Of a stretch of DNA of 32,000 nucleotides, positions 3,051-26,595 are shown one piece after another. The stretch is from positions 390,001 through 422,000 of the forward strand of contig NZ_CP059223.1 in the NCBI RefSeq assembly GCF_014252415.1. The letters are read 5' to 3'. The stretch is from Candidatus Saccharimonadota bacterium (GTDB lineage Bacteria > Bacteroidota > Bacteroidia > Flavobacteriales > Blattabacteriaceae). The notes beneath the pieces are model-generated. The model was given only the letters and a program-made list of their open reading frames with translations. It did not search any database and was not told the DNA's origin. The first letter of the stretch is position 1; each line of letters opens with the position of its first letter. The position numbers and the translations under genes are program-made.

Positions 3051-4271
3051 ATGGATGATTCATTAAAATGTACATTTTGTGGAAAAAAGAAAGAAGATAT
3101 AGATATATTAATATCAGGTATAAAAGCACAAATTTGTGATTCTTGTATAGAAAAAAGTTACTCAATTATACATCATAATAAAAATAATGAGATAAAACAA
3201 ATAAAAGAAACTAAGAATGAATTAGATTTAATAAATCCTAAGAACATTAAACAATATTTAGATAAATACATTATAGGACAAGATATAACAAAAAAAATAA
3301 TATCTGTTTCTGTTTATAATCATTATAAAAGAATAAAAAATAATTTATTTTTTAATAAAAACAATAATAATTCTAATAATATAGAAATAGAAAAATCTAA
3401 TATACTATTAATTGGAGATACAGGAACAGGAAAAACTTTATTAGCAAAAAGTATATCTAAAATATTAAATGTCCCTTTTACAATAGCTGATGCTACTTCT
3501 CTAACCGAAGCAGGATATGTAGGAGAAGATGTAGAATCTATTCTAAGTAGACTATTACAATCTTCAAATTATAATATTAATTCCACCGAAAAAGGAATTA
3601 TATTTATAGATGAAATAGATAAAATTTCAAAAAAAAATAATAATCCTTCTATAACTAGAGACGTTTCTGGAGAAGGAGTACAGCAAGCTTTATTGAAAAT
3701 TTTAGAAGGTACTACTGTACATGTTCCACCTCAAGGTGGGAGAAAACATCCGGATCAAAAAATGATACCAATTAATACTGAGAATATATTATTTATTGCT
3801 GGGGGGACTTTTGATGGAATTAATAAAATTATTGAAGAAAGAAATAATTCTTATCATATAGGATTTAAAATTGAAAAAAAAATAAATAAAAATAATTTTT
3901 TAAAAAACGTAATGCCGTCTGATCTAAAAAAATTTGGATTAATACCGGAATTAATAGGTAGATTTCCTATAATAATACGTTTAGATCCATTGGATAAAAA
4001 CTTATTAAAAAAGATATTAATTAATCCAAAAAATTCATTAATTAAACAATATGAAAAATTATTCAATTTAGATAAAATAAATTTAAATATAACAGATGAA
4101 GCATTAGATATTATTGCAGAAAAAACTTTTCAATTGGAATTAGGTGCAAGAGGATTAAGAATGTTTTGTGAAAAAATATTTTTAGATTATATGTTTAGTA
4201 TAAAAAAATTAAATAGTCAATTAAATATTGATAAAAAAATTGTTATAAAAAAATTATCTTCTTTTTTTTAA
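3051..4271 (+). CDS. clpX: ATP-dependent Clp protease ATP-binding subunit ClpX
   Basis: 406 aa. N-terminal C4 zinc finger (CTFCG...CDSC), Walker A GDTGTGKTLLAK, pore loop GYVGEDV, Walker B IIFIDEIDK, IGF loop (HIGFK) and sensor ARGLR. It carries an Asn-rich low-complexity insertion. Confidence 0.96.
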   Translation: MDDSLKCTFCGKKKEDIDILISGIKAQICDSCIEKSYSIIHHNKNNEIKQIKETKNELDLINPKNIKQYLDKYIIGQDITKKIISVSVYNHYKRIKNNLFFNKNNNNSNNIEIEKSNILLIGDTGTGKTLLAKSISKILNVPFTIADATSLTEAGYVGEDVESILSRLLQSSNYNINSTEKGIIFIDEIDKISKKNNNPSITRDVSGEGVQQALLKILEGTTVHVPPQGGRKHPDQKMIPINTENILFIAGGTFDGINKIIEERNNSYHIGFKIEKKINKNNFLKNVMPSDLKKFGLIPELIGRFPIIIRLDPLDKNLLKKILINPKNSLIKQYEKLFNLDKINLNITDEALDIIAEKTFQLELGARGLRMFCEKIFLDYMFSIKKLNSQLNIDKKIVIKKLSSFF

Positions 4272-5243
4272 ATTAACAATTTCATTTATTAAATTATTAA
4301 TTTCATTTTTATTTTTATAAGATATAAAAATTATATTTTCTTTAATATTTAAAAATTCATTTAATATTCTTTTTTTATCATAATTTTCAATTAAATCAGA
4401 TTTAGACATTACTAATAATCTTTTTTTATTTAATAATTTAGGATTAAATTTTTTTAGTTCATTTAATAATATAAAATATTGTTTTATTTCATTTTTCTTT
4501 TCTGAAAAAATTAAAAATAATAAAATAGAATTACGTTCTATATGTCTTAAAAAATTATAACCTAATCCCTTTCCATTTGAAGCATTTTCTATTATTCCTG
4601 GAATATCAGCTATTGTAATCGATTGAAAATTAAAATTTAAAATACCTATATAAGGAATTTTATTTGTAAAACAATAATTTCCTATCTTTGTTTTTGCTTT
4701 TGTTATTGTAGAAAGTAATGTAGATTTTCCTACATTAGGAAACCCTATAATTCCTACATCTGATAAAAATTTTAATTCCAGATATATCCATCTACCTTTT
4801 GTTTTTTTTCCATTTTTAGAACAAAAATTAAATTTATAATTTTTTCTTTTAAAAAAAGCACTACCTTTACCTCCTAACCCTCCCTTAAATAAAATTATTT
4901 TTTTTAAATTTTGATTAATTTCTTCTATTATATTTTCATTATGATCTTTAATAATAGTCCCCAATGGTACTTCTATTAATAAATCTTTACCATTTAATCC
5001 CGTTTTTTTATTTTTCCCTCCGGATTTTCCTGACATTGCAATCCAATGTTTCTTATATCTTAAATGAATAAATGTATTAATATTAGAATTACCCTGAATA
5101 AAAATATTTCCACCATTTCCTCCATTTCCTCCATCAGGTATTTTTTTTGAAAGATTTTTTTTTTTACAAAAATGTATATTTCCACTTCCTCCGTCTCCAC
5201 TTTTACAAAAAATTTTTATAAAATCTATAAAATTATTACTCAT
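4254..5243 (-). CDS. obg: GTPase Obg/CgtA
   Basis: 329 aa. Glycine-rich Obg fold (GDGGSGN, GGNGGNGGN). G1 motif GFPNVGKSTL, G3 motif DIPGIIENASNGKGLG and an SKSD G4-like motif. The 3' end overlaps the clpX 3' end by 18 nt in convergent orientation. Confidence 0.93.
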   Translation of the reverse strand: MSNNFIDFIKIFCKSGDGGSGNIHFCKKKNLSKKIPDGGNGGNGGNIFIQGNSNINTFIHLRYKKHWIAMSGKSGGKNKKTGLNGKDLLIEVPLGTIIKDHNENIIEEINQNLKKIILFKGGLGGKGSAFFKRKNYKFNFCSKNGKKTKGRWIYLELKFLSDVGIIGFPNVGKSTLLSTITKAKTKIGNYCFTNKIPYIGILNFNFQSITIADIPGIIENASNGKGLGYNFLRHIERNSILLFLIFSEKKNEIKQYFILLNELKKFNPKLLNKKRLLVMSKSDLIENYDKKRILNEFLNIKENIIFISYKNKNEINNLINEIVNLKKRR

Positions 5244-5838
5244 AAAAAAAATTTTTTTTCAATAAAATTTTATTTATTTTTTTTTCTATAAAAAAAGAAA
5301 TCTCTTTAATAGAAGAATTTCCTTCTAATCTAGTGATTATTTTTTTCCATTTTTTATTTTTCCAAATAGATGATGTTTCTTTATCATATTCATCTATCCT
5401 TTTTTTAACTATTTTAATATCTTTATCATCATTACGATTACTAACTTTGCTTCTATTTAATAGTCTATTAATTATTATACTTTTTTTAAGTAAAAAAAAG
5501 AAAATTATATTTAATTTTCCTATAGAAAGTTTTTCTAAAATCATTTCTAATGAAAAAATTTGATCTTTAGTTCTAGGATATCCATCATAAATAATTCCTT
5601 TAGTATGAATAAGTTTTTTTATCTCTTTATTAACTATATTTTTAGTAATTATATCAGGAACTAATTTACCATTATTTACATAACGATTAACAACTTTTCC
5701 TAAAGTTGTATGATTTCGTATATGATGTCTAAATATTAATCCGGTAGATAAATGAGCGTATCCAAATTTTTTTTTTATAATTCTAGCTTGAGTACCTTTT
5801 CCACAACCAGGTGGTCCAAATAATATAATATGTATCAT
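5236..5838 (-). CDS. adk: Adenylate kinase
   Basis: 200 aa. P-loop GPPGCGKGTQA, GYPRT motif and a short LID region (R...RNDD). It overlaps the obg start by 8 nt. Confidence 0.93.
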   Translation of the reverse strand: MIHIILFGPPGCGKGTQARIIKKKFGYAHLSTGLIFRHHIRNHTTLGKVVNRYVNNGKLVPDIITKNIVNKEIKKLIHTKGIIYDGYPRTKDQIFSLEMILEKLSIGKLNIIFFFLLKKSIIINRLLNRSKVSNRNDDKDIKIVKKRIDEYDKETSSIWKNKKWKKIITRLEGNSSIKEISFFIEKKINKILLKKNFFYE

Positions 5839-5913: not shown

Positions 5914-7314
5914 TTATAAATAAATAGATTTTTTATATGCAATAGAAACGGATTCAAGAATAAATTCACTTAATGATGGATAAGGATATATTCCATTTAA
6001 TATTTCGTAAGCTGTAGCTTCTAATTTCCTAGCAATCATAACTGATGTAATTAGATTTATTACGTTTTCCCCTATCATATGACATCCTAACCATTCATCG
6101 TATTTAGAATCAAAAATTACTTTTATAAATCCATCTATTTTTTCATTGAAAAAAAAATTATTAATTGAATTAAATGGAACTTTAGATATTTTAACTTGAT
6201 ATCCTCTTTTTTTAGATTCTTTCTCAGAATACCCTATATAAGCTATTTCTGGAAAAGAATGTACACATTTTGGTATATTGTTATAATCAATTTTTTGAGA
6301 ATCGACCCCTACTATATTTTCAACACAATTAATACCTTCTTTTGAAGCAACAGATGATAAAAATGATCTTTTAATTACATTTCCAATAGCATAATATCCA
6401 GGTATATTAGTTTGATAATTATCATTTACTACAATAAATTTATCTTCTACTTGAATTCCTATATCTTCTAATCCAATTGAATCAATATTAGGTATAATAC
6501 CATTAGAATAAAATACTATATCTGTTTCTATATAAAATTTTTTATTTTTATTATTAATTTGAATAATTATTCGATCATTTTTTTTTATAGTTTTTTCTAC
6601 AAAAGATGATGTATAAATTTCTACCCCCATTTTTTTTAAAAAAGATCTTAAATAATTTGATATTTCATGATCTCCATCTGGAAAAAAATTATTATTATTT
6701 TCTATTATAAATACTTTGGTTCCCATATAATGATAAAAAAATGAAAATTCTATAGCAATTGAATTACTTCCTATTATCACTATTTCTTTAAGTTTTTTTT
6801 TAAATTGAATTGCTTCCTTATAATTAAAAAAATTATCACCATTATATAAATTATCAGGTTTGGATCCAGTTGCTATAATAATATTTGAAGAGCTACATTC
6901 TAATATATCATTATTACTTTTAATCACTTCTACTTTTTTACCTTTTTTTAACTTAGCATCTCCATGTATAATATTTATTTTATGTTTTTTTATAGAAAAA
7001 AACATATTTTTTTTTATTTTTTTAGATAGATTTTTGCTATCTGTGAATATTTTAGAAAAATCAATATTAATTTTATTATCATTTATTCCAAGTCCTAATA
7101 AAAAATCCTGATTTTCTTTAAATAATTTAAAAATTTTTATTTTATTTAATACATATTTAAAAATATATCCATAATTAAAATAAAATCCTCCAATAAATTC
7201 TTTTTCTATTAAAGCAGTTTTCATTCCTAATTGAGCCGAACGTATAGAGGCAGCATATCCAGCAGATCCACTTCCTAAAATTATAAGATCAAAATTCATA
7301 GATTTTTTTACCAT
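5914..7314 (-). CDS. lpdA: Dihydrolipoyl dehydrogenase (E3, class-I pyridine nucleotide-disulfide oxidoreductase) homologue with degenerate catalytic motifs; possible pseudoenzyme or decaying gene
   Basis: 466 aa and collinear with E. coli Lpd. The FAD motif (ILGSGSAGY), IIATGSKP and the dimerisation-domain region (FPEIAYIGYSEKESKKRG) are conserved. Expected GGTCLNVGCIPSK reads GGFYFNYGYIFKY. Expected HAHPTLSE reads YPYPSLSE. NAD-binding GGGxxGxE reads GSNSIAIE. AIGD reads AIGN. I verified these by re-translating the DNA at 7141-7200 and 5914-6010. Confidence 0.8.
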   Translation of the reverse strand: MVKKSMNFDLIILGSGSAGYAASIRSAQLGMKTALIEKEFIGGFYFNYGYIFKYVLNKIKIFKLFKENQDFLLGLGINDNKINIDFSKIFTDSKNLSKKIKKNMFFSIKKHKINIIHGDAKLKKGKKVEVIKSNNDILECSSSNIIIATGSKPDNLYNGDNFFNYKEAIQFKKKLKEIVIIGSNSIAIEFSFFYHYMGTKVFIIENNNNFFPDGDHEISNYLRSFLKKMGVEIYTSSFVEKTIKKNDRIIIQINNKNKKFYIETDIVFYSNGIIPNIDSIGLEDIGIQVEDKFIVVNDNYQTNIPGYYAIGNVIKRSFLSSVASKEGINCVENIVGVDSQKIDYNNIPKCVHSFPEIAYIGYSEKESKKRGYQVKISKVPFNSINNFFFNEKIDGFIKVIFDSKYDEWLGCHMIGENVINLITSVMIARKLEATAYEILNGIYPYPSLSEFILESVSIAYKKSIYL

Positions 7315-7422
7315 AAGACATAAAATTACAAATTTTTATTTAATAGAAAATTATTAATCTATCATGAAAAAAAAATAATATAACTTTAATATATTTTTTG
7401 AATAAATAATATTAAAATAATT

Positions 7423-8430: not shown

Positions 8431-9234
8431 TTATAATAATTTTTTTAAACGAATTATTTTTTTTGATTTAGGATATTTTTTAATATATTCTTTATAGGAA
8501 TTATAAAAAGATTTTTTCTTATGTAAATTATATTCAGATATACATTTCTTATATAAAACATCTTCTGCATAATCACTATATGGATAATTTTTTAAAAAAT
8601 CTTTAAAACAAAAAATAGCGGATTTATATTTTCTCATTAGAAAAAATGAATTATATACATGATAATTCCTTTTTTCTAACAGATAATCTAAACTTTTTAA
8701 AAGCGTATGAGCTTCATTTGTTTTATCATCATTAGGATATTTTTCTATAAATTTTACTAATTTATTAACTGCTATATTAATTGATCTAGGATCAAAATCA
8801 CTTTCTATAGAATAAAAATAATAATATTTTCCATCATTAAATAATGAATTACCATATTCATCTTCCTCTTTCTCTTTCTTTTTAACATGAAAATTATTAT
8901 TTTTATTATTTTCAAACGATAAAGAAATATTATAATTACTATTATTAAAAATATCAAAAAATATTTCTTTTAATTTTTTATAAAAAAAATATATTTTTTT
9001 TATGAAAAATTTATTCTCAATATTTTTATTTTTTATATTTTCTGAAGAATTAGGATGATTTTTATAAAAATTATTTATATAATTATCATTATTTAAATTA
9101 TCTATTATCTTAGAATTATATTTATCATTATTTAAATTATCTATTATCTTAGAATTCAAATAGCAAAATAAATTATTGTATATGATTATTGGATTAGATA
9201 TCATTCCTATTACTAAGAAAAATTTTATACTCAC
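8431..9234 (-). CDS. bamD: Outer membrane protein assembly factor BamD (YfiO-like TPR lipoprotein)
   Basis: 267 aa. Hydrophobic N-terminus with a possible lipobox (NLFC). The C-terminal half has TPR-like repeats typical of BamD (KYPNDDKTNEAHTLL, NYPYSDYAEDVLYKK, KYPKSKK). Position upstream of rpoZ. The start overlaps the ftn stop by 4 nt (ATGA). Confidence 0.7.
   Translation of the reverse strand: MSIKFFLVIGMISNPIIIYNNLFCYLNSKIIDNLNNDKYNSKIIDNLNNDNYINNFYKNHPNSSENIKNKNIENKFFIKKIYFFYKKLKEIFFDIFNNSNYNISLSFENNKNNNFHVKKKEKEEDEYGNSLFNDGKYYYFYSIESDFDPRSINIAVNKLVKFIEKYPNDDKTNEAHTLLKSLDYLLEKRNYHVYNSFFLMRKYKSAIFCFKDFLKNYPYSDYAEDVLYKKCISEYNLHKKKSFYNSYKEYIKKYPKSKKIIRLKKLL
9083..9156 (-). repeat. In-frame 39-bp tandem duplication inside bamD (two identical 35-bp cores, 9083-9117 and 9122-9156)
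   Basis: ttatcattatttaaattatctattatcttagaatt occurs twice with a 39-nt period. It encodes SKIIDNLNNDKYN / SKIIDNLNNDNYI in the N-terminal region of the protein. Confidence 0.95.
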
Positions 9235-9749: not shown

Positions 9750-10642
9750 AACATATTAATTTTTTTTAAACAATTTTCTACTTTTTTATTTAATGAGGAT
9801 GTACCAACTAATAATGGTAATCTAACATATGGTTTACATAGCCCCATTATATTTAATAATGTTTTTATCCCAGTAGGATTACCTTCTTCATAGATTAAAT
9901 ACATCATATCTAAAATATTATAAAATATAGAAAAAGATTTTTTTAAATCGTTTTTTTGTGCCAAATATACCATATCAGATATTTTTTTTGGTAATCCCTG
10001 CGCTATTACAGAAATTACTCCTTTTCCTCCTCCAATTATTATTGGGATAGTTATAAAATCATCTCCTGATATTAAAATAAAATTAGTTGATTTATTAAAT
10101 TTTATAATGTTATAAGATTGTAATATATCGCCTGAAGCTTCTTTTATTCCTATTACGTTATTTTTAAAATTACTTGATAATTTTATTATTGTTTGATAAT
10201 GAATATTTGATCCTGTTCTTTTAGGTACATTATATATAATAATTTTAATATTTGTATTATTAATTATCGATTTAAAATGATTATATATTCCATTTTGTGA
10301 TGGTCTATTATAATAAGGAGAAACAGAAAGAATACAATAAAATTGAAATAAATTTTTCATATAATTTATTTGATTTATAACATCAACAGTATTATTTCCT
10401 CCAATACCTAAAATTAATGGTAATTTTTTAAAATTAAAATATTTAATACATTCAACAACATCTCGTTTTTCTTCTTTAGATAAAGTAGAAGATTCTGAAG
10501 TAGTTCCTAATGCAACTAAATAATCAATATTATTATTCAATACATGTTTTATAATATTTTCTAATCCATTAAAATCAATATTTCCATTTTTTTTAAATGG
10601 AGTAACCAACGCTACACCTGTCCCATATAATTTTTCCATCAT
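9746..10642 (-). CDS. dapA: 4-hydroxy-tetrahydrodipicolinate synthase
   Basis: 298 aa. GTTSES motif and catalytic lysine context IGIKEASGD. It overlaps the ftn start by 4 nt. Confidence 0.94.
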   Translation of the reverse strand: MMEKLYGTGVALVTPFKKNGNIDFNGLENIIKHVLNNNIDYLVALGTTSESSTLSKEEKRDVVECIKYFNFKKLPLILGIGGNNTVDVINQINYMKNLFQFYCILSVSPYYNRPSQNGIYNHFKSIINNTNIKIIIYNVPKRTGSNIHYQTIIKLSSNFKNNVIGIKEASGDILQSYNIIKFNKSTNFILISGDDFITIPIIIGGGKGVISVIAQGLPKKISDMVYLAQKNDLKKSFSIFYNILDMMYLIYEEGNPTGIKTLLNIMGLCKPYVRLPLLVGTSSLNKKVENCLKKINML

Positions 10643-12480: not shown

Positions 12481-13791
12481 ATGAAAAGTTTTTATATAAA
12501 AAATTATGGGTGTCAAATGAATGTAGCTGATAGTGAAATTATAACATCTATATTGTTAAAAAAAGGATTTATTTTATCTAATCATATTGAAAATGCAAAA
12601 ATTATTTTATTTAACTCATGTTCCATAAGAAAAAAATCAGAACTAACAATAAAAAATCAAATAGATAAAATAAAATATTTAAAAAATAATGGATCATTAA
12701 TTGGATTAATAGGTTGTTTTTCAAAATCTTTTAAAGAATCATTATTAAATGAAAAAAAAATTGATTTTTTTATTAATCCTGATTCTTATAGAGAAATAGA
12801 AAATAAAATTTATAATAAAAATATTGTAAAAAATTTTTATAAAAGAAAAAAAGAAACATATGAAAATATTATTCCATATAAAAAATTAGATAAAAAAATT
12901 ACTACATTTTTAAGTATAACAAGAGGATGTAATAATATGTGTACTTTTTGTATTGTCCCATTTACAAGAGGAAGAGAAGTAAGTAATAATCCCTTTCTTA
13001 TTGTTGAAGAATGTAAAAGATTACAAAATCTTGGATATAAAGAAATAACTCTTTTAGGTCAAAATGTAGATTCATATTATTGGATAGATAATAATAATTT
13101 ATCATTTAATTTTGCTAATCTATTAGAATTAATTGCTAAAAAATTACCTACTGTTAGAATACGTTTCTCTACATCTAATCCTCATGATATGTCCAATGAA
13201 GTATTAAAAATAATATCTAAATATGATAATATATGTAATCATATTCATTTACCGGTTCAATCTGGTAGTAATAAAATATTAAAATTAATGAATAGAAAAT
13301 ATTCTAGAGAAGAATATTTATTCTTAATTAAGAAAATTAGAAAATTAATTCCAAATTGTTCAATATCTCATGATATTATGACAGGATTTTGTAATGAAGA
13401 AGATAATGATCATCTTGATACTCTTCATTTAATGGATGAAATTAAATATAATTATGGATATATGTTTTCTTATTCTCCAAGACCAGGAACGTATGCTTAT
13501 AATAATCTTATAGATAATGTACCGAAAAATATAAAAAAAAAAAGATTACAAGAAATTATAAAATTGCAAAACGAACATTCATTATATAGAATGAAGGAAT
13601 TTTTAGAAAAAACTCAAAAAGTACTAATAGAAGGTACTTCAAAAAAAAGTAATAATTATTGGTACGGAAGAAATTCACAAAATATAGTAGTTGTCTTTCC
13701 AAAAAAAATAAATTTAAAAATAGGAAATATAGCATTAGTTAATGTAAAAAAATTTACGTCTTCTACTTTGATTGGAGAAGCCATAAAATAG
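12481..13791 (+). CDS. miaB: tRNA-2-methylthio-N6-dimethylallyladenosine synthase
   Basis: The track ORF starts at 12427 and overlaps pncB. The ATG at 12481 gives the canonical N-terminus MKSFYIKNYGCQMN. Radical-SAM motif CNNMCTFC and a C-terminal TRAM-like region are present. Confidence 0.93.
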   Translation: MKSFYIKNYGCQMNVADSEIITSILLKKGFILSNHIENAKIILFNSCSIRKKSELTIKNQIDKIKYLKNNGSLIGLIGCFSKSFKESLLNEKKIDFFINPDSYREIENKIYNKNIVKNFYKRKKETYENIIPYKKLDKKITTFLSITRGCNNMCTFCIVPFTRGREVSNNPFLIVEECKRLQNLGYKEITLLGQNVDSYYWIDNNNLSFNFANLLELIAKKLPTVRIRFSTSNPHDMSNEVLKIISKYDNICNHIHLPVQSGSNKILKLMNRKYSREEYLFLIKKIRKLIPNCSISHDIMTGFCNEEDNDHLDTLHLMDEIKYNYGYMFSYSPRPGTYAYNNLIDNVPKNIKKKRLQEIIKLQNEHSLYRMKEFLEKTQKVLIEGTSKKSNNYWYGRNSQNIVVVFPKKINLKIGNIALVNVKKFTSSTLIGEAIK

Positions 13792-21641: not shown

Positions 21642-22940
21642 ATGAATATTCCAACAGAAAAAAATTTAAAAAGAGTTATTATTATTGGAGCAGGATTTGC
21701 TGGACTACAAGTAGCTAAAAAATTAAGAAGAGACAAATTCCAGGTTATCCTCATAGACAAAAATAATTATCATACTTTTCAACCATTATTATATCAAGTT
21801 GCTACCGCAGGTTTGGAACCAGACTCTATTGCTCATTCAATAAGAAACATAATAAAAAATACTAAAAATTTTTTTTTTAGATTGGCTAATGTTTATTATA
21901 TAAATACTAAACAAACAAAGATCTATACAAATGTAGGTAATTTATTTTATGATTATTTAGTTATTTCTACCGGATCAATTACTAACTATTTCGATAATAA
22001 AAATATAAAATTTCATGCATTACCTATGAAATCGATACCAGAAGCATTAAATTTAAGAAGTTTAATATTACAAGATTTTGAATCAGCTTTATTAGCAAAA
22101 AAAATAAAAGATAAAAAAAGACTAATGACTTTTGTTATTGTTGGAGGTGGACCTACTGGAGTAGAATTAGCTGGAGCTTTAGCTGAAATGAAAAAATATG
22201 TTATTCCTAATGATTATCCAGATTTAGATCATCATTACATGAAAATTCATTTATTACAAGCATCTCCTAGATTATTAGATGGTATGTCAAAACAATCAGC
22301 TGAACAAGCATATAAAAATCTAAAAAATTTAGGTGTCTCTATATGGTTAAATTGTTTAGTAAAAGATTATGATGGTGAAATAATATCTATAGAAAAAAAT
22401 AAGCATATAGAAACATCTAATGTTATATGGGCAGCAGGCGTTAAAGGTGCGATAATAAAAGGATTTTTAAATGAAGATATAAAAAAAAATCGATTATTAG
22501 TTAACTCTTATCTTAGAACTATAAGATATAAAAATATATTTGCTATTGGAGACGTTTCATGTATGAAATTAAATAAAATGTATCCTAATGGACATCCTAT
22601 GACTGCCCCCCCTGCTATACAACAAGGTAATTATTTAGTAAATAATTTTAATAATTTATTATTCGATAATAATAATAAAATAAAACCATTTATATATAAA
22701 AATTTTGGATCAATGGCTACTATTGGTAGAAATAAAGCAGTCTGTGATTTTTCCTTTATTAGATTGAAAGGATTTATAGCATGGATAATATGGATGTTTG
22801 TCCATTTATTTAGTTTAGTTGGATTTAGAAATAAGGCCATAGCGTTAACAAATTGGATAATTCAATATTTTCATTATAATAAAAGTGTTAGATTAATTAT
22901 AAGACCTTTTTATAGAAAAAAATTTAGAAAATTAAAATAA
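21642..22940 (+). CDS. ndh: Type II NADH dehydrogenase (NDH-2)
   Basis: 432 aa. Two dinucleotide-binding motifs (IIGAGFAG and VGGGPTGVELAG), AIGD, and a C-terminal membrane-association region. Confidence 0.92.
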   Translation: MNIPTEKNLKRVIIIGAGFAGLQVAKKLRRDKFQVILIDKNNYHTFQPLLYQVATAGLEPDSIAHSIRNIIKNTKNFFFRLANVYYINTKQTKIYTNVGNLFYDYLVISTGSITNYFDNKNIKFHALPMKSIPEALNLRSLILQDFESALLAKKIKDKKRLMTFVIVGGGPTGVELAGALAEMKKYVIPNDYPDLDHHYMKIHLLQASPRLLDGMSKQSAEQAYKNLKNLGVSIWLNCLVKDYDGEIISIEKNKHIETSNVIWAAGVKGAIIKGFLNEDIKKNRLLVNSYLRTIRYKNIFAIGDVSCMKLNKMYPNGHPMTAPPAIQQGNYLVNNFNNLLFDNNNKIKPFIYKNFGSMATIGRNKAVCDFSFIRLKGFIAWIIWMFVHLFSLVGFRNKAIALTNWIIQYFHYNKSVRLIIRPFYRKKFRKLK

Positions 22941-25104: not shown

Positions 25105-25505
25105 AAATAATTGTAAGTAAGAAAGGTTATTTTAGTGCATCTCATAAACTTTATAATCATTTTTGGGATGAAAAAAAAAATATTGAAACTTTTGGTAAAT
25201 GTTATAATAATCATGGTCATAATTATAAATATATAGTAAGTATAAAAGGAGAAATTAATCCTATTACTGGATTTGTTATTAATTTAAATAAATTGAAAAA
25301 TATTCTTAATCAAGAGATAAAAGATTGTTTTGATCACAAAAACATAAACTTAGAATTAAAAGAATTTAGAACTATTAATCCTACTTTAGAAAATATTGTC
25401 GTTTTTATATGGAAAAAAATAAGAAATAAAATATGTTCAAAATTTGAATTAAAAATTGTTTTATACGAAACAGAAAATAATTTTGTTGAATATGATGGAA
25501 ATTAA
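25101..25505 (+). CDS. queD: 6-carboxytetrahydropterin synthase QueD / 6-pyruvoyl-tetrahydropterin synthase family
   Basis: 134 aa. Zn-binding histidines (SASHKL and HGHNY), the C-x3-HGH motif (CYNNHGHNY) and DHKNIN. It overlaps the idi stop by 4 nt. Confidence 0.88.
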   Translation: MKIIVSKKGYFSASHKLYNHFWDEKKNIETFGKCYNNHGHNYKYIVSIKGEINPITGFVINLNKLKNILNQEIKDCFDHKNINLELKEFRTINPTLENIVVFIWKKIRNKICSKFELKIVLYETENNFVEYDGN

Positions 25506-26595
25506 TAATTTAAAAAAAACAATATTATACGATTTTCATATTAAATTGAATGCAAAAATTGTAAATTTTTCAGGATTTTATATGCCACTTCAATATAAAT
25601 CTTCCTTAGAAGAACATATACATGTAAGAAATTATTCTGGAATTTTTGATGTTAGTCACATGGGGAAATTTATAATAAAAGGAAAAAATGCTAATAAAGT
25701 TTTACAATATTTAACAACTAATGATATATCAAAAATAAAAATAGGTCAGGCGCAATATACATGTTTTACTAATGAAAATGGAGGAATTATAGATGATTTA
25801 ATTATTTATTATTTAAATAACAATGAATATTTATTAATAGTAAATTCAATAAATATTGAAAAAAATAAAAAATGGATAATAAGCAATAAAAAATATGAAT
25901 TAGAATTAATTGATCTATCACAAGAATATTCTTTAATAGCAGTACAAGGTCCAAAATCCTTTTTTTACATACAAAAATTAACATCAATATCATTAAATGA
26001 TCTTCCATTTTATCATTTTAAAATAGGAAATATATGTGGAATAAAAAATGTTCTTATATCTCATACAGGGTATACTGGATCTATAGGTATAGAAATATAT
26101 GTATCTAATAAATATGCAAAATATATATGGAGTAATATATTAAATATTGGAAATGGTAACATAATCCCATGTGGAATTTCCAGTAGAGATTCACTAAGAT
26201 TAGAAATGGGATACCGTTTATATGGTCAAGATATTTCAGAAAATATTACTCCAATAGAATCTGGATTATCTTGGATTATTGATTTTAAAAAAAATTTTAT
26301 ATCTAAGAATTTTTTAATTAAACAGAAAAAATGTGGGGTACATAAAAAATTTATATCATTTTATGTTGATGATATAAAAATTTTAATTCCAAGAAATGGA
26401 TATGATATTATTAATAATAATGGAAGTAAAATTGGAGTTGTTACATCGGGTTGTTATTCTCCAATTATAAAAAAATGTATAGGACTTGGATACTTATATG
26501 AATATTATCATAATACTTTTCCTATATTTGTTTTAATAAGAAATAAAAAAATACCCATAGTAGAAAAAAAATTACCTTTTATTAAAATTAAATAA
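25492..26595 (+). CDS. gcvT: Glycine cleavage system aminomethyltransferase (T protein)
   Basis: The track ORF starts at 25456 inside queD. ATG at 25492 (or 25495) gives MMEINNLKKTILYDFH..., matching GcvT N-termini (KT.LYD.H). GFYMPLQY, FDVSHMG, SRDSLRLE and a C-terminal barrel are present. Confidence 0.92.
   Translation: MMEINNLKKTILYDFHIKLNAKIVNFSGFYMPLQYKSSLEEHIHVRNYSGIFDVSHMGKFIIKGKNANKVLQYLTTNDISKIKIGQAQYTCFTNENGGIIDDLIIYYLNNNEYLLIVNSINIEKNKKWIISNKKYELELIDLSQEYSLIAVQGPKSFFYIQKLTSISLNDLPFYHFKIGNICGIKNVLISHTGYTGSIGIEIYVSNKYAKYIWSNILNIGNGNIIPCGISSRDSLRLEMGYRLYGQDISENITPIESGLSWIIDFKKNFISKNFLIKQKKCGVHKKFISFYVDDIKILIPRNGYDIINNNGSKIGVVTSGCYSPIIKKCIGLGYLYEYYHNTFPIFVLIRNKKIPIVEKKLPFIKIK

Follow-up and report, generated by a model that had tools for sequence, protein, structure and literature searches.

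Full-length homologues of dihydrolipoyl dehydrogenase (Lpd, E3) that have lost their redox-active disulfide have been described before. In Irc15p of S. cerevisiae, a paralogue of Lpd1p, the cysteines are replaced by Tyr and Ala, FAD is kept, and the protein produces H2O2 in an NADH-driven reaction (PMC6296175). In the cockroach endosymbiont Blattabacterium, lpdA is duplicated in all five of the first genomes, that of the Mastotermes strain included (PMC3590773), and the duplication is also reported in PMC2768785. Studies comparing endosymbiont genomes class each gene as present, pseudogenised, or absent and then derive metabolic models from these classes; presence/absence matrices are unable to record a full-length gene whose catalysis has been lost.

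Here, we describe an lpdA orthologue of Blattabacterium cuenoti that lies in a 32-kb stretch of DNA analysed as a whole (referred to as the window) from a genome of 580,138 bp and ~20% GC. The preferred reading, to which a probability of about 0.62 is assigned, is that its product is a selectively maintained pseudoenzyme that probably still binds FAD and serves a non-redox role. The features on which this reading is based are listed in Table 1.

Table 1. Positions of the lpd locus features and of gcvT in the window
Feature	Position	Strand	Details
lpdA orthologue ORF	5914..7314	-	466 codons as annotated, no internal stop; E3 fold without the E3 catalytic apparatus
Probable true start M6 (MNFDLIILGSG...)	ATG 7297..7299	-	Every orthologue begins MxFD; spacing of upstream element
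FAD GxGxxG (G14-S-G-S-A-G19)	7258..7275	-	Kept in 8/8 Cys-less orthologues
Former redox disulfide CLNWGC, now YFNYGY	7165..7182	-	Y45 TAT 7182-7180; Y50 TAT 7167-7165
NAD motif GxGxxGxE, now GSNSIAIE	6748..6771	-	G184N 6765-6763; G187A 6756-6754
AIGD, now AIGN (D312N)	6379..6381	-	Alignment to orthologues
Catalytic loop HPHP, now YPYP	5980..5988	-	H443Y 5988-5986; catalytic-base H445Y 5982-5980
Conserved upstream element TTTGTAATTTTA (T[CT]TGTAA[AT]TTTA)	7321..7332	-	Orthologous position across loci
adk	5236-5838	-	Directly downstream of lpd, same strand
obg	4254-5243	-	Directly downstream of adk, same strand as lpd
gcvT (glycine-cleavage T protein), intact	25492-26595 (25456-26595 as the longer frame)	+	401 bits vs cutoff 300

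Catalytic and cofactor motifs of the lpd product

The ORF product is 100% identical to an NCBI entry named 'dihydrolipoyl dehydrogenase family protein'. It matches Pyr_redox_2 (160.7 bits) and Pyr_redox_dim (83.1 bits) in Pfam, is collinear with solved Lpd structures, and nests within Blattabacterium lpdA. The best NCBIfam model is TIGR01350 (lipoamide_DH), in which the protein scores 381.6 bits and thus falls below the equivalog cutoff of 408.8; intact orthologues reach 518–554 bits, and the Cys-less lpd of five of the eight strains described below still passes the cutoff. An AF2 model has a pLDDT of 89.5 and TM scores of 0.94–0.95 to Lpd structures, values that are alignment-driven and no proof of folding. 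Translation probably starts at M6 rather than at the annotated ATG, since orthologues begin MxFD and the conserved upstream element lies 21 nt before the M6 ATG, just 6 nt before the annotated one.

Motif columns were placed by phmmer alignment to Lpd structures (6uzi, 3ii4) and by alignment to 66 orthologues. These alignments bear out the proposal of the first-pass annotation that the substituted columns are the catalytic ones, and its codon positions for the two former cysteines (7180–7182 and 7165–7167) and the former histidine (5980–5982) are correct. The redox motif GG(V/I)CLNWGCIPTK reads GGFYFNYGYI-FKY, with a one-residue deletion, and the CxxxxC pair that would lie by the flavin is gone, residues 45 and 50 both being Tyr. 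No replacement cysteine was found in the ORF product: Cys330, Cys350, and Cys411 are shared with the aligned orthologues, and Cys140 is not part of the redox motif. At the C-terminus, HPHPSLSE has become YPYPSLSE; the His–Glu dyad of the HxHPxxSE signature is broken at His445, now Tyr, and Glu450 is kept. The NAD motif, GSGSIGLE in the intact form, no longer contains a GxGxxG (GSNSIA), though Glu205 is kept, and NAD(H) binding is inferred to be lost. Judged from these motifs, the ORF product can no longer act as a dihydrolipoyl dehydrogenase.

The FAD site presents a different picture. GSGSAG and Glu37 are present, and the ATGS motif is kept as well, in agreement with the first-pass annotation, but Asp312 of AIGD, a residue commonly assumed in this family to contact the FAD ribitol, is Asn in the window protein and has been lost in two further strains. 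FAD is most likely still bound, given that the FAD GxGxxG and Glu37 are kept and that relaxation is lowest in the two FAD domains; the loss of Asp312 here and in the two other strains makes this assignment uncertain.

Alternatively, the protein could have become an altered oxidoreductase, that is, an FAD enzyme with another electron donor or acceptor, comparable to Irc15p, the quinone reductase LpdA of M. tuberculosis, or the soluble transhydrogenase. In favour of this possibility, the FAD motif and the FAD domains are the best conserved, known relatives function without the disulfide (PMC6296175), and in free-living Flavobacteriaceae the type-A lpd is often found behind msrB and a DinB-like gene, not E1/E2 genes; no E1 or E2 partner genes were found near either Lpd type in these bacteria. 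However, the known Cys-less relatives all retain the NAD(P)H site, whereas here G184N and G187A disrupt it, and residue 184 is Asp or Asn in six of the eight Cys-less orthologues. His445 and Asp312 are also missing, and residue 45 varies freely among Cys-less orthologues (Y, S, F, or G) without any sign of a new catalytic residue. Family models for the alternative activities score far under their cutoffs on the ORF product (PRK07845.1, NAD(P)H-quinone dehydrogenase, 186 of 479 bits; PRK05249.1, transhydrogenase, 227 of 465 bits). A changed redox activity is therefore considered quite improbable.

Repeated loss and selection on the open frame

Comparison of codons indicates the route and the order of the substitutions. 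Intact orthologues have TGT at Cys45 and Cys50, GGT or GGC at Gly184, GAT at Asp312, and CAT at His443 and His445; in the window, sites 45, 50, 184, 312, 443, and 445 read TAT, TAT, AAT, AAT, TAT, and TAT. The Cys, His, and Asp changes are thus single G:C-to-A:T transitions relative to the intact codons, as expected from the AT mutational pressure that the first-pass annotation had invoked. Gly184 became Asn in two steps, GGT to GAT to AAT, and the sister strain (570,862 bp) still has GAT. The Tyr pair itself is shared in part: the sister strain has TAT at codons 45, 443, and 445, but TGT at codon 50. Loss of Cys45 and His445 predates the split from the sister strain, and for Cys45 it probably dates to the common ancestor of a five-strain clade; Gly184 first became Asp and later Asn, and the change of Cys50 to Tyr is restricted to the window's own lineage.

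Loss of Cys45 is found in 8 of ~55 Blattabacterium orthologues, all of them from strains with reduced, fast-evolving genomes (511–595 kb). In a tree of eight concatenated proteins, the Mastotermes strain is separate from two clades of Cys-less strains, one with 100% bootstrap support and one with 94.5% that groups with an intact strain; Cys45 was thus lost independently three times or more. Neighbour-joining trees of Lpd and GcvT would trace the seven other Cys-less strains to one ancient loss, a scenario that was rejected; the corresponding split has 0% support in the concatenated tree, and the neighbour-joining grouping is therefore probably due to long-branch attraction. The variants form a series of increasing severity, from the Mastotermes strain, with three hits in an otherwise fully conserved protein, to the window protein, which is the most eroded. 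In two further strains, with genomes of 567 kb, gcvT is present and no lpd appeared among the type-A orthologue matches listed, and for this reason lpd may be dispensable in some lineages. That the equivalent state occurs in eight independently sequenced genomes makes a sequencing or annotation artefact hardly credible, and the same can be said of a recoded genetic code that would restore Cys or His, given the ordinary TGT and CAT codons elsewhere in the ORF and in neighbouring genes.

Changes at invariant sites are enriched at catalytic and NAD residues. With invariant sites defined across 59 intact sequences and a seven-site catalytic/NAD set (C45, C50, G182, G184, G187, H445, and E450), 5 of the 19 invariant-site changes in the window protein fall into the set (P=0.0035), as do three of five in the Mastotermes strain (P=0.0025) and three of seven in the Euphyllodromia strain (P=0.008).

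The coding sequence has remained constrained. Since the split from the sister strain, lpd has accumulated a dN of 0.169 and a dS of 0.416, corresponding to an omega of 0.41 (bootstrap 95% interval 0.31–0.54; maximum of 500 replicates 0.64), compared with a dN/dS of 0.20 for ten concatenated neighbour genes in the same strain pair; because dS is near saturation, the absolute omega values are rough. Differences between the window and sister proteins affect 19% of formerly invariant sites, as opposed to 39% of variable sites. For deeper strain pairs, only relative dN was compared, since four-fold sites are saturated (p 0.4–0.5). Across 12 syntenic genes, the lpd distance between Cys-less strains is 1.78-fold that of intact pairs, and the other genes range from 0.9- to 1.55-fold; none of the 12 is accelerated as much as lpd, whose absolute rate equals that of ferritin, adk, and obg. 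In the Mastotermes strain, dN is 0.124 for lpd, 0.134 for adk, and 0.137 for obg.

The relaxation is spread over all domains, amounting to 1.81-fold in the interface domain and 1.38-fold in the FAD domains. Since the interface domain, which serves E2 docking and dimer formation, is relaxed more than the FAD domains, a simple E2-docking role is argued against, and E2 docking was rejected as the conserved function. The structural E3-like subunit proposed in the first-pass annotation is likewise not backed by these rates.

Could the locus be a plain pseudogene, recently inactivated or slowly decaying, with a frame that is open by chance? The catalytic residues were lost by transitions that AT pressure favours, the TIGR01350 score is under the cutoff, and the genome is strongly reduced and AT-rich, all of which would fit such an origin. 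Nevertheless, the ORF contains neither stops nor frameshifts, it is full-length in all eight Cys-less strains, and omega is not close to 1, none of the 500 bootstrap replicates exceeding 0.64. In neutral point-mutation simulations on the real coding sequence, the probability of remaining free of stops is 0.1–0.3% at 15% amino-acid divergence per lineage. A genuine pseudogene is available for comparison in strain 561052, where the adjoining pncB is a 963-bp remnant with 26–31 stops per frame next to a Cys-less lpd that is open. A very recent inactivation, which the first-pass annotation had considered, fails because the Cys45 loss is common to the five-strain clade, and the sister strain carries the dead state too. 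Plain pseudogenisation is accordingly regarded as very improbable, and the suggestion that the open frame reflects continued selection is upheld by the omega significantly below 1, the simulation, and the pncB control.

Gene neighbourhood and supply of E3

The gene order, with tal divergently oriented and lpd followed by adk and obg, is identical in 10 of 10 related loci. No terminator-like site was seen between lpd, adk, and obg, and the spacers are short; the three genes may be co-transcribed. Counts from promoter and terminator scans equalled the shuffled expectation in the AT-rich DNA of the window. Starting 24–40 nt ahead of lpd, a conserved element was found in the window and at eight of ten related loci; it is present at five of seven related loci with a dead lpd, and the Cpu locus has a G-to-A variant. 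Because the element occurs once in the window against 0.68 occurrences expected by chance, its conserved position is the one property that carries weight. The element may act as the lpd promoter or operator and is the only hint, an indirect one, toward lpd expression. A nearby BPL_LplA_LipB gene, considered as evidence for lipoylation, encodes the biotin ligase BirA and is irrelevant in this context.

This arrangement bears on the possibility of a trapped ORF, in which lpd would have no positive function and selection would act only against harmful routes of loss, keeping the frame open and foldable until a clean deletion occurs. The harm could come from truncated or misfolded products, or from premature stops in lpd that, through polarity, impair expression of the essential genes adk and obg. 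The shared strand, the short spacers without a terminator-like site, the position of lpd as the most relaxed of the 12 syntenic genes with an omega twice that of its neighbours, the relaxation over all domains, and the apparent absence of lpd from the two 567-kb strains are all consistent with this possibility. However, polarity alone leaves missense changes free, yet the dN of lpd matches that of adk, obg, and ferritin, and its invariant sites have changed at half the frequency of its variable sites. Moreover, pncB in strain 561052 decayed through dozens of stops while its neighbours were not lost, and Blattabacterium sheds genes freely, with some 940 losses across 566 genes (PMC8382890). In the small populations of endosymbionts, weak selection against misfolding should also be ineffective. 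Hence, a trapped ORF appears unlikely as the explanation for the open frame.

The glycine-cleavage gene gcvT, noted in the first-pass annotation, is intact in the window and present in all eight strains with a Cys-less lpd. Its product needs L-protein (E3) from some source. The window lpd (type A) is likely one of two lpdA copies, because published Blattabacterium genomics gives lpdA as duplicated (PMC3590773, PMC2768785), and the duplication also speaks against the view, assumed in the first-pass annotation, that one E3 serves the pyruvate dehydrogenase, 2-oxoglutarate dehydrogenase, and glycine-cleavage complexes alike. Based on the second lpdA of the literature and the retention of gcvT in all eight strains, the E3 chemistry for glycine cleavage probably comes from elsewhere than the window lpd.

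It is important to note that lpdA redundancy in the window's own genome rests on literature about other strains, as the second copy was not found. When genome contigs were scanned for the redox motif with an AT-codon-restricted DNA pattern, no Blattabacterium was among the at least 120 matches listed. Lpd of type B from a 490-kb symbiont matched by this pattern then served as protein query, and no Blattabacterium was among the best 120 matches; against 50%-identity representatives, the clusters of the most AT-biased matches contained Zinderia, and no Blattabacterium was found there. These negative results are uninformative, since thousands of proteins from free-living bacteria outrank those of symbionts, which evolve fast, and 50%-identity clusters would absorb a Blattabacterium copy.

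Proposed role and relation to known systems

The preferred reading combines two properties expected of a pseudoenzyme: the conserved catalytic motifs of the family are missing, and purifying selection has continued after their loss, as seen between two strains that both carry the dead state. The protein has lost both cysteines that accept electrons from dihydrolipoamide, the catalytic-base histidine, the glycine at the centre of the NAD(H) fold, and the AIGD aspartate; according to this model, purifying selection nevertheless maintains the gene as a folded protein. A second lpdA copy would supply E3 to the retained glycine-cleavage system. The repeated loss of the NAD site would do no harm or would even be advantageous, since an E3 without its cysteines produces H2O2 as long as it can bind NADH, as measured for Irc15p. 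The surviving role would be one in binding, a structural one, or a moonlighting one, dependent on the FAD-stabilised fold.

A more specific and far more tentative version of the model can be formulated. Reduced-genome Blattabacterium might repeatedly have converted the type-A lpdA into an NAD-blind, disulfide-less, probably FAD-holding protein that is needed non-catalytically, with the recurrent change of Gly184 to Asp or Asn being adaptive in that it ends NADH-driven H2O2 production. If true, a pseudoenzyme would have arisen in place and convergently in a bacterial endosymbiont, which would be evidence for an unrecognised non-redox function of E3 in bacteria.

More generally, lpd is kept by selection in lineages that are otherwise quick to shed genes, and on three or more occasions it has lost the same catalytic and NAD sites. 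This means either that E3 does something valuable besides catalysis or that the locus represents a distinct, long-lived stage of gene death. As a natural experiment, the graded variants could reveal the regions of the E3 fold that remain important in a protein without catalysis. Metabolic reconstructions of these Blattabacterium strains may credit E3 to the wrong gene, since a full-length lpd that passes the TIGR01350 cutoff in five of eight strains belongs to a protein for which the reaction is predicted to be impossible.

In comparison with canonical Lpd (lpdA of strain Bge; PDB 6uzi, 3ii4, 1zmc), the window protein is collinear, is 54% identical to the Bge protein, and is encoded at the position shared with intact Blattabacterium lpdA, but it is without CxxxxC, the catalytic His, the NAD GxGxxG, and the AIGD Asp. 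SthA and M. tuberculosis LpdA (Rv3303c) differ from it in being NAD(P)H-dependent flavoenzymes with an intact GxGxxG. The soluble transhydrogenase SthA has the same fold, lacks one Cys, and is without lipoamide activity. LpdA likewise shares the fold and is devoid of lipoamide activity, with one Cys and the His–Glu dyad missing (PMC6296175).

The closest known analogue is yeast Irc15p, which resembles the window protein in being a full-length E3 homologue with both redox cysteines replaced, the first by Tyr; it does not reduce lipoamide and is retained by selection in a role unrelated to the 2-oxoacid complexes (PMC6296175). In contrast to the window protein, Irc15p still has its His–Glu dyad and an NADH site, and NADH reduces it rapidly (PMC6296175). 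[quoted passage not shown] With the gene losses compiled for Blattabacterium in 2021, the Cys-less state of lpd shares its parallel recurrence; that study scores the presence or absence of genes, whereas the Cys-less lpd is present, with its catalysis gone and its ORF under selection (PMC8382890).

Catalytic motifs of the lpd product

The lpd frame comprises 466 codons with no internal stop in a window of about 20% G+C, and its product is 100% identical to an NCBI 'dihydrolipoyl dehydrogenase family protein' of Blattabacterium cuenoti, an obligate fat-body endosymbiont of cockroach hosts. Pfam returns strong matches to Pyr_redox_2 and Pyr_redox_dim, and the top NCBIfam model, the lipoamide dehydrogenase equivalog TIGR01350, scores 381.6 bits against a cutoff of 408.8. 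An AlphaFold model built from 69 homologues (pLDDT 89.5) matches solved structures of dihydrolipoyl dehydrogenase (E3) with TM 0.94-0.95, a confidence that is mostly alignment-derived and no proof of folding. Translation probably starts at M6 rather than at the annotated M1, because MxFD opens the orthologues and just 6 nt separate a conserved upstream element from the annotated ATG.

Coordinates of lpd and of the other features discussed (L-numbers denote related loci)
Feature	Sequence	Position	Strand
lpd frame, annotated start M1 at 7314	window	5914-7314	-
lpd start M6 (ATG)	window	7299-7297	-
Upstream element T[CT]TGTAA[AT]TTTA	window	7321-7332	-
Upstream element, related loci	L122-L130	about 9961-9977	
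BamD/YfiO-like frame	window	8431-9234	-
Second Pyr_redox_2-family flavoprotein	window	21642-22940	+
Region without clpX	L122 (JAISSZ010000005.1)	13019-13230	
pncB remnant	L128 (strain 561052, CP059214.1)	6107-7069	

The first-pass annotation had described an E3 homologue with its catalytic hallmarks substituted, and as a whole that observation is real: alignment to solved E3 structures and 66 orthologues confirmed every substituted column as catalytic. Relative to the orthologue consensus, the redox disulfide motif GG(V/I)CLNWGCIPTK reads GGFYFNYGYI-FKY, the catalytic loop HPHPSLSE reads YPYPSLSE, the NAD-binding GSGSIGLE reads GSNSIAIE, and AIGD reads AIGN; the FAD motif GSGSAG, Glu37, and ATGS are retained. 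A read-out of the codons found them at the annotated coordinates and agrees with the proposed origin by single transitions (intact TGT, TGT, CAT, CAT, and GAT to TAT, TAT, TAT, TAT, and AAT). Gly184 became Asn in two steps, the intermediate of which (GAT) is still present in the sister strain, 570862. No compensating cysteine was found in the protein, as Cys330, Cys350, and Cys411 are conserved in aligned orthologues and Cys140 is not part of the redox motif.

Because four defining features were sought and found missing (a score above the TIGR01350 cutoff, the redox disulfide, the His-Glu dyad, and the NAD motif), the protein should not, on its sequence, be classed as a dihydrolipoyl dehydrogenase, and it is predicted to be incapable of the E3 reaction. 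Both sequence-level hallmarks of a pseudoenzyme, loss of catalytic motifs and purifying selection afterwards, are found.

Cysteine-less orthologues and their history

The first redox cysteine, Cys45, is missing from 8 of about 55 Blattabacterium orthologues, the remaining 47 being intact. Cys45/Cys50 read Y/Y in the window's own strain (580138), Y/C in strains 570862, 586065, and 594902, S/C in 561716 and 511065, F/I in 561052, and G/Y in 587248; the codons at position 45 (TAT, TCT, TTT, and GGT) are all one step from TGT. Strain 587248, which groups with the Cryptocercus strain, we take to be MADAR of Mastotermes. All eight genomes are reduced; six of their orthologues have Asp or Asn in place of Gly184 in the NAD motif, four have Tyr in place of His445, and three have lost Asp312. 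An artefact is excluded by the presence of the same state in eight independent genomes. Strain 511065 is the Euphyllodromia strain (PMC8382890). Five of the eight proteins (P0012, P0015, P0016, P0051, and P0053) score 420-493 bits, pass the TIGR01350 cutoff, and for that reason bear the public name 'dihydrolipoyl dehydrogenase'; HMM thresholds alone overlook the loss of catalytic residues.

Neighbor-joining trees of Lpd and of GcvT place seven of the eight Cys-less strains in one group. A single common loss in the non-Mastotermes strains was rejected in a concatenated tree (eight syntenic proteins, 2,530 columns), where the split uniting all six such strains sampled has 0% support. That tree contains clade X, (511065,(561716,(580138,586065))), at 100% bootstrap, clade Y, (594902,561052), at 94.5% and grouping with the intact strain 586140, and the Mastotermes strain with Cryptocercus at 100%, all trees being neighbor-joining on fast-evolving, compositionally biased sequences. 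Given this topology, the catalytic loss arose at least three times, and that of clade X is most parsimoniously older than five lineages.

The first-pass annotation had asked whether relatives share the two tyrosines and had allowed for very recent inactivation. Tyr45 is indeed present in the sister strain; Tyr50 is not, Cys50 being kept there. Very recent inactivation is refuted, since the dead state is common to the sister strain and the loss is old and convergent. As the steps from Cys50 to Tyr and from Asp184 to Asn were taken only in the window's own lineage, erosion is progressive and the window protein is the most degraded of the series.

Selection on the open frame

Five independent lines point to a frame kept open by selection rather than chance, supporting the reading favored at first pass, selection on a non-catalytic polypeptide: omega (dN/dS), a simulation, the site pattern, neighbor rates, and a pncB control. 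The sister strain has TAT at codons 45, 443, and 445, as in the window, and all divergence between the two therefore postdates inactivation. Pairwise counting gives lpd a dN of 0.169, a dS of 0.416, and an omega of 0.41 (bootstrap 95% interval 0.31-0.54; 0/500 replicates above 0.64), with 0.20 for ten concatenated neighbor genes in the same pair; the true lpd value is lower because dS is near saturation and hence underestimated. Window-sister differences affect 19% of the sites invariant in intact E3s versus 39% of variable sites, the figures for intact pairs being 0% versus 65-75%. Constraint on lpd is relaxed yet clearly present. In a neutral point-mutation simulation on the real coding sequence, in which about 7% of mutations create a stop, only 0.1-0.3% of sequences still lacked a stop once each lineage had diverged by 15% in amino acids.

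Relative to intact pairs, the distance between Cys-less strains is 1.78-fold for lpd, the highest of 12 genes (others, 0.90-1.55-fold). In absolute terms lpd evolves at the rate of ferritin, adk, and obg, and lpd of the Mastotermes strain shows no acceleration (dN 0.124; adk, 0.134; obg, 0.137). The speed at which DNA devoid of function decays in these genomes can be gauged locally from pncB of strain 561052, a true pseudogene reduced to 963 bp (15.7% GC); each frame on its strand has 26-31 stops, and only residues 1-28, 85-107, and 359-390 remain detectable and collinear. In the sister of that strain, 594902, pncB is intact; lpd is open in both, lacks Cys45 in both, and is 58% identical between them. 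A plain pseudogene or recent inactivation is contradicted and scarcely credible.

Ten related loci share the order tal<-|lpd->adk->obg. Selection directed solely at toxic truncation, or at polar effects on adk and obg, would fit this operon-like layout, as well as the standing of lpd as the most relaxed gene; this explanation is nevertheless unlikely, as it leaves open why missense changes are as constrained as in adk and obg, and the pncB remnant demonstrates that stop-riddled decay is tolerated nearby. Purifying selection maintains the window lpd.

The substitutions are also unevenly placed. Among 93 columns invariant in intact sequences, the set {Cys45, Cys50, Gly182, Gly184, Gly187, His445, Glu450} takes 3/5 substitutions in the Mastotermes strain (P=0.0025), 3/7 in the Euphyllodromia strain (P=0.008), and 5/19 in the window protein (P=0.0035). 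Ratios of clade-X to intact-pair distances are 2.95 for the redox helix, 1.81 for the interface domain, 1.79 for the NAD beta-alpha-beta unit, and 1.38 for the two FAD domains, the background of other genes being about 1.2-1.3. In this pattern the losses target catalysis and NAD binding, and the part that binds flavin is the best conserved.

The upstream element lies 24-40 nt from lpd in the window and 8/10 related loci, within otherwise divergent AT-rich spacers, and is present in 5/7 loci with a Cys-less lpd, a slight indication that signals for lpd expression may persist. As it occurs only once in the 32-kb window (chance expectation 0.68), it seems specific to this gene and not a promoter motif of general use. 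Genes of the window, of ordinary housekeeping and biosynthetic kinds, are pyrG, clpX, obg, adk, lpd, fsa/tal, a weak BamD-like frame, ferritin, dapA, pncB, and miaB; a sigma-54 activator, groEL, kdsC, nusB, yajC, coaE, and an NDH-2-like flavoprotein; and menF, menI, idi, queD, gcvT, a MATE transporter, aroC, miaA, and folC. Outside L122, a Mastotermes-strain-like MAG, clpX separates obg from pyrG in the window and every related locus; in L122 it is absent and pyrG directly follows obg. The BamD/YfiO-like frame (33-41 bits, well under family cutoffs) carries a tandem peptide duplication (NSKIIDNLNNDKY / NSKIIDNLNNDNY), and no gene is called at its position in L123, L124, L125, L127, and L128.

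Proposed role, E3 supply, and known systems

The lpd protein probably still folds as an FAD-containing dimer, blind to NAD(H), and would serve a non-redox role. gcvT is present in all eight Cys-less strains and intact in the window (401 bits versus a cutoff of 300), and E3 activity for this glycine-cleavage T protein would probably come from a second lpdA. Published comparative genomics counts lpdA as a duplicated gene in each of the first five Blattabacterium genomes, that of the Mastotermes strain included (PMC3590773; PMC2768785); for the window's genome, we infer redundancy from this literature on other strains. Two strains of 567,420 and 567,897 bp (P0433 and P0442), of a lineage separate from the eight, have gcvT and, among the matches listed, no orthologue of the window lpd (type A), which may have been deleted or pseudogenised there; this suggests that GcvT is independent of the type-A copy. 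By its NCBIfam matches, all of them weak (best 88.7 bits), the second Pyr_redox_2-family flavoprotein of the window (432 aa) resembles NADH dehydrogenases of the NDH-2 type; it is no Lpd paralogue and is unable to replace E3.

Free-living Flavobacteriaceae have two Lpd types of about 45% mutual identity (L009, L032, L010, and at least about 20 other loci). Upstream of the type orthologous to the window frame, and in the same orientation, there is often msrB (SelR) or a DUF1572/DinB_2 gene and not E1 or E2; the usual partner of type-A-like Lpd may be something other than a 2-oxoacid complex. An intact second-type Lpd (EKYKSYGGTCLNVGCIPSK) is encoded by L114 (CP063811.1, 'MAG: Bacteroides sp. 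isolate cpbc052018'), a 489,825-bp chromosome with 22% GC in an 8-kb stretch that looks like an unclassified reduced symbiont; the closest relative of this Lpd among the matches listed, at 56% identity, is on a 294-kb contig.

Cys-poor relatives can remain enzymes: the transhydrogenase SthA still uses NAD(P)H. So does LpdA of M. tuberculosis (PMC6296175). Altered flavoenzyme chemistry in the window lpd is improbable, more so than selection solely against truncation or polar effects, as the NAD(P)H motif is kept in every known Cys-poor relative. Yeast Irc15p, a Cys-less E3 paralogue with its NADH site kept, produces H2O2 on NADH (PMC6296175); speculatively, recurrent NAD-site loss is perhaps more than drift, in that its closure would take away one cause of oxidative damage. 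A literature search found no paper describing the Cys-less lpd state in Blattabacterium. The closest known case is Irc15p, in which Tyr likewise stands at the first cysteine, FAD is kept, lipoamide activity is absent, and the protein moonlights (PMC6296175). The window lpd departs from Irc15p in the further loss of His445 and the NAD motif, in its origin as an orthologue changed in place and not as a duplicate, and in belonging to a recurrent conversion; it would represent a convergent, in-place pseudo-E3 of an endosymbiont.
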